Shown piece by piece: positions 6,822-44,279 of a stretch of DNA of 49,973 nt (positions within the stretch are counted from its first letter, which is position 1; the number at the start of each line of letters is the position of its first letter). Both the position numbers and the translations under genes were made by a program. Below the pieces are notes generated by a model that was not told the origin of the DNA, did no database searches, and was given only the letters and a program-made list of their open reading frames with translations. Where the stretch lies: the NCBI GenBank assembly GCA_964580495.1, contig CAZOKE010000003.1, forward strand, positions 1 through 49,973. The letters are read 5' to 3'. The DNA comes from an uncultured Candidatus Saccharibacteria bacterium. Lineage in GTDB: Bacteria; Patescibacteriota; Doudnabacteria; UBA920; O2-02-FULL-48-8.

Positions 6822-6865
6822 TCTCGTCGTAATTGGTCGACACTACGCGTCCGTTCGCAAACTCA

Positions 6866-7384
6866 TTATTTTCGCCGGTGGCCGTTTCGGATTGGCATCA
6901 AATATTTGCGGGGGTCACCATCCAAGTCTAAATAATAATCCACAAGCTCGCGCATCTTTGTGGAAGTGGACTTACCAAATGACACGAGCTCTACTTTGAC
7001 ACCCTGGATTTGAAGATATTCTAAAAGCGGAATATAGTCGCCGTCACCCGATGCCAGCACTACAACATCTAACTTAGGCAAAAGCTTTATGATATCCATA
7101 ACAATTCCCACATCCCAGTCGCCCTTCTTGGCCCCGCCGTAAAAACTTTGGAGTTCTTTGAGCTTGACCTCAAAGCCGGCTTTCTTCAAAGCATCAAAAA
7201 AAGTCTGCTCTTCCGGCATGTCAGCTTTGATGCCATAAGCAATGGCCCGAACCAGCGGCCGATCGCCTACCGCGTCTTTCAAAATATTGGAAAAGTTAAC
7301 CCTGGCATTATAAACGTTTCTTGCCGTGTAATAAAAATTTTGCACATCCACGAAAACCCCTACCCGTTGTTCTGCTCTTGGCAT
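6866..7384 (-). CDS. NYN (LabA-like, PIN-fold) domain protein, putative RNase
   Basis: The ORF-track start at 7510 would overlap rmuC. The internal ATG at 7384 gives MPRAEQRVGVFVDVQNFYY...ASGDGDYIPLLEYLQ, the NYN domain pattern. Confidence 0.8.
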   Translation of the reverse strand: MPRAEQRVGVFVDVQNFYYTARNVYNARVNFSNILKDAVGDRPLVRAIAYGIKADMPEEQTFFDALKKAGFEVKLKELQSFYGGAKKGDWDVGIVMDIIKLLPKLDVVVLASGDGDYIPLLEYLQIQGVKVELVSFGKSTSTKMRELVDYYLDLDGDPRKYLMPIRNGHRRK

Positions 7385-20062: not shown

Positions 20063-20138
20063 TGGAGCCGAAGGTCGGAATTGAACCGACAACCTACCCC
20101 TTACGAAGGGGTTGCTCTGCCAGTTGAGCTACTTCGGC
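20063..20138 (-). tRNA. tRNA-Thr (anticodon CGT)
   Basis: 76-nt cloverleaf: GCCGAAG/CTTCGGC acceptor, loop TTCGTAA, T-loop TTCAATT, CCA encoded. Confidence 0.88.
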
Positions 20139-20142
20139 GCAA

Positions 20143-20379
20143 TTAAATTCTTGAATTTAGAAACCTTCTACCAAACCCTGATTTAAAATACTTTTCGCGT
20201 TTTATTGCCTTTGTCTTATCAAGGCAAGCTTCGAAGTAAACTAGTTCAAATGGAACCCTTCCAATAGTTGATTGGACTAAACCATCATTGTGGGTTTTAA
20301 TCCGTTTATCTAAATCATCAGTCCAACCAATATAATGCTTAGAATCTTTTAAGCTTTTTTTGACATAGGTATAAAACAT
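20143..20379 (-). CDS. GIY-YIG nuclease family protein (UPF0213-like)
   Basis: MFYTYVKKSLKDSKHYIGWTDDLDKRIKTHN is the GIY...YIG...R...H pattern. The upstream ORF extension overlaps a repeat hairpin and I discarded it. Confidence 0.8.
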   Translation of the reverse strand: MFYTYVKKSLKDSKHYIGWTDDLDKRIKTHNDGLVQSTIGRVPFELVYFEACLDKTKAIKREKYFKSGFGRRFLNSRI

Positions 20380-20397
20380 AAAGGATGAGCCACGCCA

Positions 20398-20448
20398 GCA
20401 ACGCCTGAGCAAGCTGAAACGCTCAAGATCAGGCTTGCGATGGCGGGC
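20398..20448 (-). repeat. 51-nt hairpin repeat, copy 1 (in the 5' leader of the GIY-YIG gene, no U-tract)
   Basis: 50/51 identical to 20496-20546. It contains the internal stems CCTGAGC/GCTCAGG and CGCAA/TTGCG. Confidence 0.7.
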
Positions 20449-20495
20449 GGGTACGCCGGCTTAACTAGGATATTATAACAAAAAAGCGCCCGCCC

Positions 20496-20546
20496 GCAAC
20501 GCCTGAGCAAGCTGAAACGCTCAGGATCAGGCTTGCGATGGCGGGC
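20496..20546 (-). terminator. 51-nt hairpin repeat, copy 2 = pepF terminator
   Basis: It starts 4 nt after the pepF stop. On the minus strand the long hairpin GCCCGCC..CGCAA..CCTGAGC/GCTCAGG..TTGCG..GGCGGGC is followed by GCTTTTTTG. Confidence 0.7.
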
Positions 20547-20549
20547 TGG

Positions 20550-22361
20550 CTATTTGCGCTTCTTTGTTTGTTTATAAATTTCTTTAGCTTCAACTATAAG
20601 ATCCTCATAAACTTTCAAGCCATGCTTCCATACGTTAGGATCATTCATATCAAAACCGACCATTTTCAAAGCTTCTTCTGGAGAAACCGAGTTCCCGACA
20701 GATAAAAATTTCAGATATTTCTCAACAAATGAATTTCCCTCTTTCAAATATTTGGCATATAAAGCCAAAGCAGCCAGAGCTCCAAAAGCATAGCCATAAT
20801 AATAAAAGGGTGGAGAGAAATGATAAAAATGACCGATATATGACCACCAATATTCGTAGCCGCCTTTCGTTTCAACTGTTTTTCCGAAAAGTTCGTCCTG
20901 GCGCCGGATCCACATTCCATTTATTTGCGAAACCGTAAGCTCATTTCCCTTACGGCGTTCGCGATGGATATCTTTTTCAAATTCATAAACCGCGATTCCG
21001 CGAAAAATATTTCCGGATAAATCCTCGATTTTATCTGTGATTAGGTCAAATCGCTCTTCCGCACTCATCTCCGAGTTCATAAGTGCATTAAACAGAACCA
21101 TTTCGCTGAACAAACTGGCAATTTCAGCTAAAATTGTCGGAACTCCATAATTAAAGATTGTTTGCTTTTGCATCAAGACATCGTTTATACCGTGCCCAAG
21201 CTCGTGGGCCAGAGTGTTAATATCAGTAATTTTGCCTGTAAAATTCACCAATATGTAAGGAGGAATTTTTGGACTGACCCCGGCACAGTAAGCACCATTT
21301 GTTTTGCCTGGGCGAATTAGCGCGTCGATTCTTGATTCCTCAAAAAATCTCTCCGCAATTGCAGCATAATCTTTGCTGAATTTCTCAAAGCCGCGAAGAA
21401 TAATATTTTTTACTTCGCTAAATTGATATGTTTTGTCGGAAGAAATTGGATAAAAAGCGCCGCGATCATAATAATACATTTTATCGAGCCCCAAAACGCC
21501 TTTTTTAAATGAAAGGTAATTTCTATACTTGTCATTTTTGCTTTGGACGGTTTTGGACAAATTTGCCACAACTTCGGACGAAATTTCATTATCCAAGTTT
21601 CTCGGTTCGTCTAGTTCCTTGTATCTCCTTAATTCCGTAACGATCTGCTCATCTTGCATCAGCATGTTTAAAATAAAAGCCAGGTTTTCTGATTCTTCCT
21701 TCAAGCCAGCCGTCAACCCTTCAGCAGCCGCTTTGCGCAAATTGCGATCCTTATTCTCTAAATATACAAAAATGTCGGATTGCAATACTTCTTTAGTTTC
21801 TTTTCCAATTTTAATCTTGAACTTCTTTGTGGTGCTGATCCGGTCAAACATTCGCTCCAAGGCAGCCCGGCTGGTTAGATATTTGAGGTTGATAATCTTC
21901 TGTTCAGCTTCCGTCAGCATATGTGGTTTGTAGTCAAGAATCCTTTTTATGTGGTGCTTATAGTTGGCCAGGATCTTGCTGTTTAGTAATTTTTTTATTT
22001 CTCCCAGAGGCAGCTTGCTTAGCTCCAAATCAAAAAACACCAATAAATTATTGACTTGCTGGTAATCAGTTTGAATTTTCTGATAAAATGCTCCAACTTT
22101 TGGATCGTTGTTGTTTAGAGACAATAAAAAATAGGAATAGTATCCGTATTTTACCGTAGCTTCGAAAATTTTCTCGTATTCCCGGAAAATTTCCAAAAAT
22201 TCTGATTCCGATTTATTCGAAAGCTTGCCGCGATATTTTTGCTCAAAGCTTTTAGCCAACGCCAATGATTTTTTAAAATCAACACCAATTTTCGGATCGT
22301 CTATATCATCATAGAATCTAGTTAAATCCCAAACTGGCAATTGTTCTCCTTTTTTAGGCAT
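20550..22361 (-). CDS. pepF: oligoendopeptidase F (M3B metallopeptidase)
   Basis: 603 aa with the zinc motif AHELGHG and M3B-like architecture. Confidence 0.9.
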   Translation of the reverse strand: MPKKGEQLPVWDLTRFYDDIDDPKIGVDFKKSLALAKSFEQKYRGKLSNKSESEFLEIFREYEKIFEATVKYGYYSYFLLSLNNNDPKVGAFYQKIQTDYQQVNNLLVFFDLELSKLPLGEIKKLLNSKILANYKHHIKRILDYKPHMLTEAEQKIINLKYLTSRAALERMFDRISTTKKFKIKIGKETKEVLQSDIFVYLENKDRNLRKAAAEGLTAGLKEESENLAFILNMLMQDEQIVTELRRYKELDEPRNLDNEISSEVVANLSKTVQSKNDKYRNYLSFKKGVLGLDKMYYYDRGAFYPISSDKTYQFSEVKNIILRGFEKFSKDYAAIAERFFEESRIDALIRPGKTNGAYCAGVSPKIPPYILVNFTGKITDINTLAHELGHGINDVLMQKQTIFNYGVPTILAEIASLFSEMVLFNALMNSEMSAEERFDLITDKIEDLSGNIFRGIAVYEFEKDIHRERRKGNELTVSQINGMWIRRQDELFGKTVETKGGYEYWWSYIGHFYHFSPPFYYYGYAFGALAALALYAKYLKEGNSFVEKYLKFLSVGNSVSPEEALKMVGFDMNDPNVWKHGLKVYEDLIVEAKEIYKQTKKRK

Positions 22362-42411: not shown

Positions 42412-42440
42412 TTGAAAATGTGCCAAAAATCTGGTATATT
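42412..42440 (+). promoter_or_regulatory. promoter TTGAAA-17-TGgTATATT (extended -10) for the tRNA-Gln unit
   Basis: Hexamers at 42412-42417 and 42435-42440. Confidence 0.55.
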
Positions 42441-42472
42441 TATTAAGCTTTACCGAATTTACAAATAATTGA

Positions 42473-42523
42473 TGGGGAGTCGCCAAGTGGTATGGCACCG
42501 CCCTTTGGAGGCGGCATTCGAAG
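42473..42523 (+). pseudogene. 5' fragment of tRNA-Gln (first 51 nt, 50/51 identical to the intact copy)
   Basis: It covers the acceptor 5' strand, D arm, anticodon arm (TTG), variable loop and 4 nt of the T stem, then diverges into an inverted-repeat arm. Confidence 0.7.
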
Positions 42524-42561
42524 ACACGCCCCGCACCAATTTCAAATTACGCTCAGCTGGT

Positions 42562-42636
42562 TGGGGAGTCGCCAAGTGGTAAGGCACCGCCCTTTGGAGG
42601 CGGCATTCGAAGGTTCGAATCCTTCCTCCCCAGCCA
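42562..42636 (+). tRNA. tRNA-Gln (anticodon TTG)
   Basis: 75-nt cloverleaf with a U1-A72 pair (TGGGGAG/CTCCCCA), loop CTTTGGA, T-loop TTCGAAT and CCA encoded. Confidence 0.9.
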
Positions 42637-42703
42637 ACTGAATCATAATTTGATCAAATTGGTGCGGGGTGAAAATCTTTTCTCCCCAGCCAAATATATT
42701 AAA

Positions 42704-42731
42704 CAAAAAAACCCCGCATCGGGGTTTTTCT
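42704..42731. terminator. bidirectional terminator
   Basis: AAAACCCCG-cat-CGGGGTTTTT. It sits between the tRNA-Gln unit and the convergent dnaX. Confidence 0.75.
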
Positions 42732-42746
42732 AATTACTCGTTACTA

Positions 42747-44279
42747 CTACTCTATCTCACCTCCCATAATCTTAAGGGCGGACTCCATGAGGTTTTGGTC
42801 TGGGTCAGATGGTTTGCTATTATCGGTTTGATTTTCCGAAACCGGCTCTCCCCAATCTTTTTCCAAAATCGGTTTTATCATAAGCTTTTGGCCTGTGACT
42901 TCTTCAATCACCTGGTCCACTACTATTTTATTCTTTCGCTGTTCCACCGCATCTTTATGGAATTTATAGGGGAAAGTTACCAGCAGGTCGCGGCCTTGGA
43001 CTGCGACAGGTTTGGCTAATTTTAGGCTTGGTATGAGTGAGTGGTTATAATCTTTCAGTTTTTCCAGAATTTGGGGCCAATGCGATAAAACATTTTGCAA
43101 ACCATCATTGTCATTCTGAGCCGCAGGCGAAGAATCTGCAGTTTGATCAGTTTTCAGATCCTTCACTTCATTCAGGATGACAGGTGCGGATTTAGAGCCC
43201 GCAATCGAAGCCGCTTCGACAGCTGCTAGCTCCAACGGCAAACTTTGGATGCTCGACCATTTGATCTCGCTTCCAGCTTTTTGGAAAATTTCCGTAATAC
43301 GGATTAATTTCGCCAGATCGGTTTTGGCCGCGAGTTCTCCCATTTCTCGCTCCATTTCAGAAGAAAAACCGAATGAAGTCTTGGCTCCGACTTTGATTAT
43401 CAAAACTTTGCGCAAGTATTCCAAAAAGTCTTTTTGGAATTGATAAAGATCTTTGCCGTCATAAAGCAATTTGGAAATAAAATCCACGGCGTCTTTGCTT
43501 TTGCCTTCCAAAATCAAATCCAAAAAATCATGGGTGGTTTTCAGGCTGGTCAGGCCGAGGACATCCTCCACCAGGTCAGCTTCAAGTTTATCGGATGTAT
43601 AGTTGAAAACCTGGTCCAGCAAAGACAAACCGTCGCGGAAGCTTCCGTCAGCCGCAGCAGCTATAGTCACCAAAGCTTCTGGCGTAGCTTCGATATTGTT
43701 GTCTTTGCAGACAAAACCCAGCCGCTGCACCAAATCTGCAATTGAGGCTTTTTTAAAATCAAATCTTTGGGTGCGTGAAACTATTGTTGCCGGGACTTTT
43801 TGGATTTCTGTGGTGGCCAAAACAAAAATTGCATGTGCCGGCGGCTCTTCCAGGGTTTTGAGCAAAGCATTGAAAGCGCCTTTGGACAGCATGTGGACTT
43901 CGTCGATAATTATGACTTTATAAGTTGCCCGGGTCGGAGCGAATTGCAGGTGTTCGATAAGTTCACGGATGTTGTCGACGCCGGTGTGCGAGGCAGCATC
44001 GATTTCCAATATATCCAGCGAGGTTCCGGCCAAAAACTCTTTGCACAAATCACAGGAATTGCACGGCTCCCCGTCCTTGCGGTTTGGGCAATTCACAGAC
44101 CGTGCATAAATTCGCGCCAAAGTGGTCTTGCCTACTCCGCGAGGTCCGGTGAAAAGGTAGGCATGCCCAATTCGCCCGCTGGTCACGGAATTTTTGAGCG
44201 TGGTTTTGATGTGCTCCTGGTTAACCACGTCGGCAAAATTCAAGGGCCTGTATTTGCGATAAAGTACAAGATTGGACAT
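42747..44279 (-). CDS. dnaX: DNA polymerase III subunit gamma/tau
   Basis: 510 aa with YRPLNF, the P-loop GPRGVGKTT, a zinc module (CPNRKDGEPCNSCDLC) and DEVHML. Confidence 0.93.
   Translation of the reverse strand: MSNLVLYRKYRPLNFADVVNQEHIKTTLKNSVTSGRIGHAYLFTGPRGVGKTTLARIYARSVNCPNRKDGEPCNSCDLCKEFLAGTSLDILEIDAASHTGVDNIRELIEHLQFAPTRATYKVIIIDEVHMLSKGAFNALLKTLEEPPAHAIFVLATTEIQKVPATIVSRTQRFDFKKASIADLVQRLGFVCKDNNIEATPEALVTIAAAADGSFRDGLSLLDQVFNYTSDKLEADLVEDVLGLTSLKTTHDFLDLILEGKSKDAVDFISKLLYDGKDLYQFQKDFLEYLRKVLIIKVGAKTSFGFSSEMEREMGELAAKTDLAKLIRITEIFQKAGSEIKWSSIQSLPLELAAVEAASIAGSKSAPVILNEVKDLKTDQTADSSPAAQNDNDGLQNVLSHWPQILEKLKDYNHSLIPSLKLAKPVAVQGRDLLVTFPYKFHKDAVEQRKNKIVVDQVIEEVTGQKLMIKPILEKDWGEPVSENQTDNSKPSDPDQNLMESALKIMGGEIE

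Follow-up and report, generated by a model that had tools for sequence, protein, structure and literature searches.

The locus for glutamine tRNA described here lies on contig CAZOKE010000003.1 of an uncultured Candidatus Saccharibacteria bacterium (GTDB lineage Doudnabacteria), the 49,973 nucleotides of which form the whole stretch of DNA that was analysed (the window; contig C3 of the assembly). The source assembly is 841 kb long, comprises 40 contigs, is 98% complete and has 45.6% G+C. Within the window, a 147-bp cassette (42525–42671) splits a tRNA-Gln(UUG) gene in its T-loop. The cassette is bounded by two inverted arms that embrace a leader, an intact tRNA-Gln(UUG) gene and a trailer, and the two pieces of the split gene remain on either side of it, so that one tRNA gene is found nested within another (Table 1).

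Organization of the tRNA-Gln locus

The outer 5' part spans tRNA positions 1–53 and comprises the acceptor 5' strand, the D arm, the UUG anticodon arm, the variable region and the 5' strand of the T-stem. As reported in a preliminary description of this DNA, made from the sequence alone, its segment 42473–42523 is identical at 50 of 51 positions to the first 51 nt of the intact tRNA-Gln(UUG) at 42562–42636, the sole change being A21>T. The base that follows, 42524, is A where the tRNA counterpart has G53 (G53>A), and both changes hit near-universal tRNA positions. Aligned with tRNA-Gln the outer gene scores 97, compared to at most 16 with other tRNA types. The outer 3' part starts at A58 of the T-loop and continues through the 3' strands of the T-stem and acceptor and G73 to CCA. 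This fragment had been recognised before as well, with a length of 11 nt; it is in fact longer, with 18 of 20 positions identical between 42674–42693 and 42618–42637 (the 3' part of the T-loop through CCA). The changes C62>T and C65>T in this part both still allow G.U pairing with the relic T-stem. The break in the outer gene falls between G53 and, in the T-loop, about A57; T54–C56 are gone. In-silico excision of 42524–42673 yields a tRNA-Gln(ttg) call by ARAGORN at a relaxed threshold, showing that the outer pieces are collinear halves of one gene.

In the sequence as it stands, ARAGORN and Rfam call the inner tRNA alone (65.2 bits), and it is the sole tRNA-Gln(UUG) of the genome, tRNA-Gln(CUG) being located by ARAGORN on contig C14. 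The outer tRNA is not called by ARAGORN, its intron and relaxed modes included; a minus-strand 'tRNA-Arg with intron' given by the relaxed mode was rejected as spurious. With the Rfam tRNA model (RF00005) the outer 5' piece obtains 25.1 bits, below the cut-off of 29, and reaches this value only via an acceptor strand paired with the left arm, the T arm being absent. No Rfam family matches the arms or the cassette at either gathering or E-value thresholds. The cassette contains no open reading frame (ORF) of note, and only spurious ORFs overlap the region 42473–42692.

The arms, with the invariant 9-mer of the left one at 42530–42538, are complementary at 14 of 14 positions over 42529–42542 and 42656–42669, and 16 pairs including one G.T can be formed over 42527–42542 and 42656–42671, in full agreement with the earlier account. 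The imperfect pairing of leader with trailer extends the helix to the inner tRNA, where the final leader bases CTGGT pair with the discriminator-CCA-A. The minimum free energy fold of 42447–42731 (RNAfold) is exactly the nested tRNA-in-tRNA structure that had been proposed for a single transcript, with an energy of -120.5 kcal/mol and z = -7.9; none of 200 shuffles reached a comparable folding energy. The junction in this predicted fold is an internal loop of 2 nt and 4 nt. A promoter-like site before the whole unit and a terminator hairpin behind it are present, as noted in the preliminary description.

Table 1. Coordinates of the features at the nested tRNA-Gln locus and of related features in the same genome (positions without a contig name refer to the window)
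Feature	Position	Strand	Basis or remark
Sigma-70-type promoter-like site, extended -10 (TTGAAA-17-TG-TATATT), ahead of the whole unit	42412..42440	+	sequence prediction
22 nt between promoter and outer tRNA, missing in congeners	42451..42472	+	locus comparison
Outer tRNA-Gln relic, 5' part	42473..42524	+	self-alignment, sub-threshold Rfam tRNA match
Cassette left arm (CACGC-CCCGCACCA-ATTT)	42525..42542	+	arm-family comparison
Inner leader	42543..42561	+	imperfect pairing with trailer (inverted repeat, fold)
Intact tRNA-Gln(UUG), CCA encoded	42562..42636	+	ARAGORN, Rfam
Inner trailer	42637..42655	+	inverted repeat, fold
Cassette right arm (AAAT-TGGTGCGGG-GTG)	42656..42671	+	arm-family comparison
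Outer tRNA-Gln relic, 3' part	42674..42692	+	self-alignment
GC hairpin between A-run and T-run, putative terminator	42704..42732	.	prediction
Single-domain GIY-YIG ORF, 78–89 codons	20170–20379	minus	PF01541, E = 3e-13
tRNA-Leu(CAG) between same-family arms CCCGCACCATTTTA / TAAAATGGTGCGGG	C36:512–698	minus	
tRNA-Thr(UGU) between one-base-variant arms CCCGCCCCTTC / GAAGGGGCGGG, inside split tRNA-Thr	C1:20040–20215		
tRNA-Arg(CCU) bracketed by CCCGCC...GGCGGGCAGG, preceded by 21-nt tRNA-Arg 5' fragment (GCCCTCGTAGCTCAATGGATA)	C2:31837–31972		
tRNA-less arm-family member, 99 bp, 73-nt non-tRNA interior, TAAA flanks	C1:40531–40629		
Ssn-like GIY-YIG ORF, ~95–145 codons (six ORFs)	C15:24789–25010		
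	C6:43954–44166		
	C7:32474–32698		
	C11:5569–5787		
	C20:7363–7578		
	C17:11105–11323		

The arm family

Copies of the arms were sought with the pattern CCCGCACCA-N(20–160)-TGGTGCGGG, the reversed pattern serving as the control. Such an exact-match pattern misses diverged members, and related genomes are non-independent samples. The arm pair was found in 28 of 146 genomes of the order (control, 0) and in just seven of 301 genomes sampled evenly across the phylum, with one to five copies per genome. Further copies, for which the preliminary description had suggested searching, are thus present both in these genomes and in the genome under study, which has three. A scan of all species genomes gave many matches in high-GC phyla, in which pairing is limited to the nine specified bases; since their helix is exactly 9 bp long, with no extension, they are matches by chance. 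The same scan revealed copies with extended arms in metagenome-assembled genomes (MAGs) of Komeili-, Portnoy-, Moran- and Saccharibacteria.

Forty-three copies were fetched and analysed, of which 26 carry a complete tRNA and 17 are tRNA-less. The arm consensus, (T-T-Y-A)-C-CCCGCACCA-N-TTT(T), with its invariant 9-mer, covarying position 10 and T-rich extension, is present in all of them. Position 10 forms a Watson-Crick pair in 43 of 43 copies (A-T in 14, T-A in 12, C-G in 12 and G-C in five), and in a one-base variant family, CCCGCCCC, the opposite arm carries the compensating change. The covariation, as well as the compensated variant, indicates that hairpin formation is under constraint, and this constraint could act on DNA or on RNA. 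The asymmetry of the arms is found in either polarity relative to the tRNA strand, so that half of the copies have an A.C mismatch in place of the wobble when transcribed with the tRNA; it therefore belongs to the element rather than to the tRNA transcript.

The tRNA-carrying copies, 99–170 bp long, hold tRNAs for Gln, Leu, Pro, Val, Thr, Arg, Gly, Lys, Asp and Ser with 12 anticodons. About 20 of these 26 copies are flanked by the 5' and 3' pieces, in collinear order, of a tRNA of the type they carry, with scores above those of other-type tRNA controls on at least one flank. Insertions into the T-loop are seen for Gln (three times), Arg (twice), Gly and Val-GAC, those into the anticodon loop for Pro, Val, Asp, Ser and Thr, and those into the D-loop for Leu(CAG) (four times). 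The T-loop junction, GG/C-N-N-G-C-CCCGCACCA ... TGGTGCGGG-GTGA/A-ATCC, is common to the cassette at 42525–42671 and to copies with Gln (in genomes G077 and G108), Arg, Gly and Val, and is kept even in other families and, in G077 and G108, with a different Gln isoacceptor. Among all nests examined, the outer and inner genes are most alike in the Gln(UUG) nest at 42473–42692 (score 97 versus 72 or less); by this similarity, it appears to be the youngest of them.

The tRNA-less copies are mostly 94–103 bp long, the three shortest having 55, 66 and 76 bp. Their interiors of 66–75 nt are AT-rich (16–41% G+C) and cannot be aligned between copies. Identical 4-bp flanks (TAAA/TTTA) are found at nine of the 17 copies, and at least three of the four positions match at 12 of 17, compared to 0.5% in the control. 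These 4-bp target duplications are a signature of transposition.

Other copies and nests in the same genome

When all 43 tRNAs of the genome were ranked by the energy of their leader–trailer duplex, four stood out, namely Gln(UUG), Leu(CAG), Thr(UGU) and Arg(CCU), and a tRNA 5' fragment lies upstream of each. Arms of the Gln type are present in three copies, around Gln(UUG), around Leu(CAG) on C36, and as the tRNA-less 99-bp copy on C1; the genome contains the arm 9-mer 13 times, and the three elements account for six of them.

On C36, tRNA-Leu(CAG) is enclosed by a decayed tRNA-like shell with the acceptor GGACATG/CATGTCC followed by A and CCA, in which the arms occupy the place of the anticodon arm. 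The variant arms on C1 surround tRNA-Thr(UGU) within an outer tRNA-Thr that is interrupted after the D arm and before anticodon position 35; tRNA-Tyr comes next downstream. The acceptor stem of this outer tRNA-Thr is perfectly paired, with compensated changes relative to the inner one (GCCAGCT/AGCTGGC versus GCCGACG/CGTCGGC), which shows that the outer tRNA was a working, different allele before it was split. On sequence grounds the tRNA-Thr(UGU) nest would therefore represent a foreign cassette within this same genome. The fourth case, tRNA-Arg(CCU) on C2, is bracketed by a CCCGCC hairpin motif that also splits tRNA-Gln relics in three relatives (G010, G017 and G022).

The 5' end of a 668-codon ORF for a secreted-type protein includes the tRNA-less element on C1 in frame; the orthologue of this ORF is too diverged for an empty site to be demonstrable. 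The GTG within the right arm of the element could act as a start codon. In another genome (G094), an arm-family copy provides the leader of a prepilin-like gene (...KSGAG/FTLIE).

Orthologous tRNA-Gln loci in relatives

In each of the five relatives checked for this position, the tRNA-Gln(UUG) gene neighbours the 3' end of dnaX. In G001 and G002, which belong to the same genus, the promoter block TTGAAA..TGnTATATTTAc..GcTT directly precedes a plain tRNA-Gln gene, with neither arms nor a 5' relic; in G001, the order is promoter, tRNA-Gln and terminator next to dnaX, and in G002, tRNA-Gln follows the promoter immediately. Compared to these congeners, the locus described here has 111 extra nucleotides (42451–42561) between the shared promoter and the working tRNA-Gln, and its outer tRNA-Gln copy is not conserved in them. 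G001 and G002 thus appear to be empty orthologous sites, of the kind the preliminary description proposed to look for, and with them the locus forms the occupied and empty pair by which a miniature inverted-repeat transposable element (MITE) is recognised.

The inner tRNA-Gln is 98% identical to that of G011, from another genus, and 84% identical to the tRNA-Gln(UUG) of each congener. These values fit horizontal exchange, within the little that a 75-nt gene resolves. The 22 nt that follow the promoter and are missing in the congeners contain ACCGAATTTACAAAT, which matches ACCAATTTCAAAT of the inner left arm at 13 of 15 positions with two 1-nt gaps, a similarity equalled by 40 of 2000 shuffles. 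This weak resemblance hints that the segment might be a remnant of an older arm and leader and, tentatively, that the outer tRNA-Gln copy may itself have arrived as a cassette.

Probable replacement of the resident gene by a cassette

The anatomy of the locus, the arm family, the same-type nesting, the target duplications at tRNA-less copies and the un-nested gene of the congeners favour one of the two possibilities raised in the preliminary description, a small cassette bounded by terminal inverted repeats. We consider it probable that a foldback cassette resembling a MITE brought its own tRNA-Gln into the T-loop of the resident gene, which it thereby replaced. The cassette, moving as a unit and consisting of two inverted arms with the core CCCGCACCA-N-TTT around tRNA-Gln(UUG) and its self-pairing leader and trailer, would have removed T54–C56 upon insertion. 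The inner tRNA would then become the functional gene and the outer halves a dead relic. Such an insertion would be harmless and able to persist, because the cassette supplies a working copy of the gene that it destroys. The relic status of the outer copy follows from A21>T, G53>A, the loss of T54–C56, the missing ARAGORN and Rfam calls, and the lack of EndA and RtcB discussed below; the functional outer tRNA-like body that had also been envisaged finds no support, given the same changes and its absence from the congeners.

The old promoter would still transcribe the relic halves, as a leader of ~110 nt and a trailer of ~55 nt. In this transcript, the arms, leader and trailer would form the ~30-bp helix that closes off the inner tRNA and keeps the duplicated outer 5' half from mispairing with it. 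Release of the tRNA could be achieved by ordinary enzymes, with RNase P and 3' trimming and possibly RNase III acting on the helix.

Several observations weigh against this reading. Matching 4-bp flanks are found at one of the 26 tRNA-carrying copies and are absent at 42525–42671. These copies instead have asymmetric flanks, CNNG at one end and TRAA at the opposite end, an arrangement that occurs in either polarity relative to the tRNA; target duplication, inverted duplication and native loop sequence were each considered for them and do not explain them. The tRNA-carrying copies may thus have been inserted by a route other than that of the tRNA-less ones. No transposase or nuclease with these arm termini was found, and the genome itself has just three copies and lacks a long pair of arm ends. 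The near-identity of outer and inner Gln would also fit intragenomic duplication or gene conversion, and the conservation of the arm sequence across the order at low copy number could mean a cellular function. Finally, among species-level relatives no occupied/empty polymorphism within a population was seen; a metagenome search with the upstream PAP2-like protein returned just relatives with 48–57% identity and no synteny, and no population-level alleles. When single ends were used to search for an autonomous element, the 146 genomes of the order yielded nothing but short elements and solo ends.

The missing target duplications at tRNA-carrying copies argue against plain transposition for those copies. 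Their insertion might be due to (a) a transposase that prefers the loops of tRNA genes, only matched cargo surviving selection, (b) recombination on tRNA homology arms, perhaps stimulated by a nuclease that cuts the loop, or (c) an RNA-guided or hairpin-guided mechanism. We can speculate further, although we regard this extension as rather unlikely, that the CCCGCACCA-armed elements constitute a dedicated system of the candidate phyla radiation (CPR) for moving whole tRNA genes, combining a hairpin-specific enzyme with cargo-tRNA-directed insertion into a self-replacing tRNA gene drive. A putative hairpin-specific enzyme would excise or copy the tRNA cassettes delimited by arms, the sequence of the carried tRNA would direct insertion into matching resident loops, serving either as DNA homology or as an RNA guide, and tRNA genes would be serially overwritten from within. 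A drive of this kind would explain the lack of target duplications at tRNA copies, the landing of cassettes in their own gene, and tRNA-Gln types that are discordant with taxonomy.

Should armed cassettes indeed replace tRNA genes routinely, the latter would not be stable, vertically inherited markers in ultra-small bacteria, and relic halves would confuse both tRNA annotation and the inference of integration sites. By carrying a spare copy of the gene, selfish DNA would have a simple, cost-free way to invade an essential single-copy gene.

The leader–trailer helix and the alternative of a composite RNA

The chief alternative to the replacement of the resident gene by a mobile cassette is a functional composite RNA, in which the arm helix would be an RNase III-type stem and the outer body a scaffold, a processing handle or a nicked two-piece tRNA. 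The preliminary description had likewise noted the resemblance to RNase III processing stems. A single promoter and a single terminator serve the whole unit, and the genome encodes RNase III (rnc), making cleavage of the predicted ~30-bp helix feasible; the G.T position of the arms, C62>T and C65>T all maintain G.U pairing, and the arms are conserved across the order at low copy number. Partition-function folding of the transcript, expressed as the mean cloverleaf pair probability of the inner tRNA, points in the same direction. With intact arms the cloverleaf reaches 0.79 and the acceptor stem 0.96, essentially equal to the isolated tRNA-Gln (cloverleaf, 0.78); when one arm is shuffled or both are deleted with the outer pieces kept, the values fall to 0.54–0.64 and 0.63–0.76, respectively. 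The same values also count in favour of the replacement by a cassette, the arms of which probably insulate the fold of the inner tRNA-Gln.

The comparison with relatives nevertheless speaks against a composite RNA. Among 32 of their tRNA-Gln loci that were examined for leader–trailer pairing, a helix that abuts the tRNA and pairs through CCA is present only in G010, G019, G020, G032 and G011, all of which are loci with cassette features, that is, with upstream relics or a mini GIY-YIG gene, and the arm sequences of these five are mutually unrelated. No such helix is seen at loci whose promoter lies immediately before the tRNA. Being confined to cassette-type loci, the helix is thus a feature of the cassette and no requirement for tRNA-Gln maturation, which the congeners and most relatives accomplish without it; a role as a general maturation feature was rejected for this reason, leaving only the possibility of RNase III cleavage from the likeness noted earlier. 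In addition, these arms also enclose AT-rich DNA that has no tRNA and is flanked by target duplications, in one case inside an ORF, and their polarity in either direction places an A.C mismatch in half of the transcripts. The outer body lacks the TPsiC loop and A21, and the splicing endonuclease EndA (PF01974) and the ligase RtcB (PF01139) were not found in the 98%-complete genome, so that no known route would rejoin the outer halves. A functional composite RNA is therefore an improbable explanation.

Other alternative explanations

A local accident with no mobile element involved, in which tRNA-Gln was duplicated in tandem, deletions ensued and a palindrome arose fortuitously or through replication, would account for the near-identity of outer and inner genes (50/51) and for the weak resemblance of the 22 nt before the outer copy to the inner leader. 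Tandem duplication, though, does not put a whole gene between the halves of another. Moreover, the same 9–13-mer arms surround other tRNAs here and in 27 other genomes of the order, the T-loop junction is common to unrelated tRNAs in other families, and the zero count of the reversed-pattern control speaks against the arm family being a search artefact. We regard such an accident as very unlikely.

Little more credit, and indeed slightly less, can be given to the scar of an island or prophage that a tyrosine integrase inserted into the T-loop of tRNA-Gln and that was later almost wholly deleted. The T-loop and the anticodon loop are classical crossover sites for integrases, and the 3' end of the tRNA is duplicated downstream. 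However, integration duplicates only the segment 3' of the crossover, as a direct repeat, whereas at this locus a second copy of the 5' 51 nt is also present and the boundaries of the insert are inverted repeats; there is no integrase ORF nearby, the neighbours being dnaX and the PAP2-like protein; no full-length integrase island with the arms as its attL and attR was seen. Least plausible of all is an artefact of MAG assembly at a repeated tRNA sequence, conceivable in a genome of 40 contigs, since the same architecture, arms and junction were assembled independently elsewhere (G077, G108 and others), the structure of promoter, nest and terminator is coherent, and assemblers collapse repeats and do not nest them.

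Comparison with known systems

Among known mobile DNA, the arm family can be compared to MITEs and foldback elements such as Rickettsia palindromic elements (RPE), Correia and ERIC, with which it shares a size of ~100–150 bp, conserved terminal inverted repeats, a non-coding character and, at tRNA-less copies, short AT-rich target duplications. Like RPE, it has one copy in frame inside an ORF. It differs from all of these in that a complete tRNA is present in many copies, which then reside in a gene for that same tRNA type, that the interiors are unrelated yet the arms are identical across the order, and that there are one to five copies per genome, no target duplications at tRNA copies and no known autonomous partner.

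Integrative elements that target tRNA genes (phages, integrative and conjugative elements, and islands) resemble the cassette in their choice of target and of sublocation (T-loop or anticodon loop), and they also carry sequence that keeps the tRNA functional and leave a displaced tRNA fragment. In contrast, they restore a 3' segment, whereas a whole tRNA is carried here and both old halves remain; their attachment (att) repeats are direct, those of the cassette inverted, and the cassette, with only 147 bp, has no integrase. The free-standing GIY-YIG homing endonuclease SegB of phage T4 ('intronless homing') provides another example of a selfish unit that overwrites a tRNA region, and GIY-YIG ORFs do lie upstream of tRNA-Gln in three relatives and of tRNA-Thr(CGU) in the window; however, there is no nuclease gene in or beside the cassette, and SegB homing leaves no nested relic.

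Disrupted tRNA genes are described for archaea, where they include split and tri-split genes as well as non-canonical and transposing introns (Fujishima et al. 2009, 2010, as cited in PMC10714607). In such genes, the halves are joined via a GC-rich complementary helix, the insertions occur at the D-, anticodon and T-loops, and the introns behave as mobile elements, in all of which they can be likened to the cassette. The present case differs in its bacterial host, in having no bulge-helix-bulge at the junction (an internal loop of 2 nt and 4 nt instead of 3-4-3), in the EndA and RtcB that were not found, and in an insert that is a whole tRNA within a decayed, unspliced outer gene. Given the likeness, these nests make it possible to study in bacteria the origin of split and intron-bearing tRNA genes. 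RNase III stems of rRNA operons and 23S intervening sequences are alike in the long leader–trailer helix around a stable RNA and in the presence of rnc, and differ in that the helix here is missing at orthologous plain loci and that the same arms surround non-RNA cargo.

Literature searches on nested or disrupted tRNA genes, intervening sequences and inverted-repeat insertions in CPR/Patescibacteria found no description of such an arrangement, in agreement with the preliminary description, which was aware of none in bacteria. The nearest items, CPR rRNA introns and archaeal transposing tRNA introns, both come from one meeting report. Armed cassettes are thus apparently an undescribed way of replacing tRNA genes, and what is new here is the definition of the arm family, its covarying position and distribution, the target duplications at tRNA-less copies, the insertion-site classes and the empty orthologous site.

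Small nucleases and other elements at tRNA genes

Seven small GIY-YIG ORFs (PF01541) are encoded in the genome, none of them in or beside the cassette; the nearest is the one in the window. It ends 4 nt before tRNA-Thr(CGU) (20063–20138), directly upstream of that gene, and is preceded by two ~57-nt CCCGCC...GGCGGG hairpins and a 9-nt stub of the tRNA-Thr 5' end (GCCGGCGTA). The region 20063–20600 (minus strand) thus has the appearance of a nuclease-plus-hairpin cassette at a tRNA gene. The GIY-YIG genes directly upstream of tRNA-Gln in three relatives encode 78–80 residues.

The remaining six ORFs are similar to Ssn, a system in which a GIY-YIG gene of ~94 residues is flanked by an SRM hairpin with the consensus HGTCWY... 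(PMC11893778). At least five of the six (those on C15, C6, C7, C11 and C17) are flanked by short inverted repeats, for example GTCATTCCCGAC...TCGGGAAT on C15, and hairpins of the GTCATTCCCGAC type resemble the SRM motif of that study. The CCCGCACCA arms were considered for the same identity and rejected, as by eye they do not fit the SRM pattern, which suits other hairpins of the genome. The conserved, covarying arms point to a putative hairpin-recognising enzyme, of possible practical interest like the Ssn nucleases. Related CCCGAC...GTCGGG hairpins stand in for the anticodon arm in tRNA-Gln relics of relatives. The presence of several cassette types at tRNA genes indicates that the tRNA genes of this group are invaded by several kinds of small elements.

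Behind tRNA-Gln of G002 (locus L048), there is a GC-rich element of ~115 nt. It is conserved downstream of tRNA-Gln in loci L048, L020, L031, L032 and L041 of relatives, starts with the reverse complement of the T arm (GGATTCGAAC) and closes with a repeat of the tRNA 3' end (GAATCC...CCCCAGCCA); no Rfam family matches it at gathering or E-value thresholds.

Genomic context

The nested locus is followed by dnaX, convergent on the minus strand with its stop codon at 42747, and preceded by the divergent gene for the PAP2-like membrane protein. The terminator prediction assigns the hairpin at 42704–42732 to the minus strand; with an A-run before and a T-run after it, the hairpin could serve both the tRNA unit on the plus strand and the convergent dnaX.

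In the whole genome ARAGORN identified 43 tRNAs and one tmRNA. It did not find tRNA-Asn(GUU), Gly(UCC) and Pro(UGG) in the 98%-complete assembly, and these may be unassembled or hidden in disrupted form. Five unrelated tRNAs have in common a leader of ~45 nt directly upstream, consisting of a small hairpin and then a GCGAAGGTTCGACCAGCTGCGACG-like sequence. It is located at ~6822–6866 of the window (minus strand) and before tRNA-Glu(CUC) on C28, tRNA-Ser(GGA) on C7, tRNA-Arg(GCG) on C26 and tRNA-Cys on C2.

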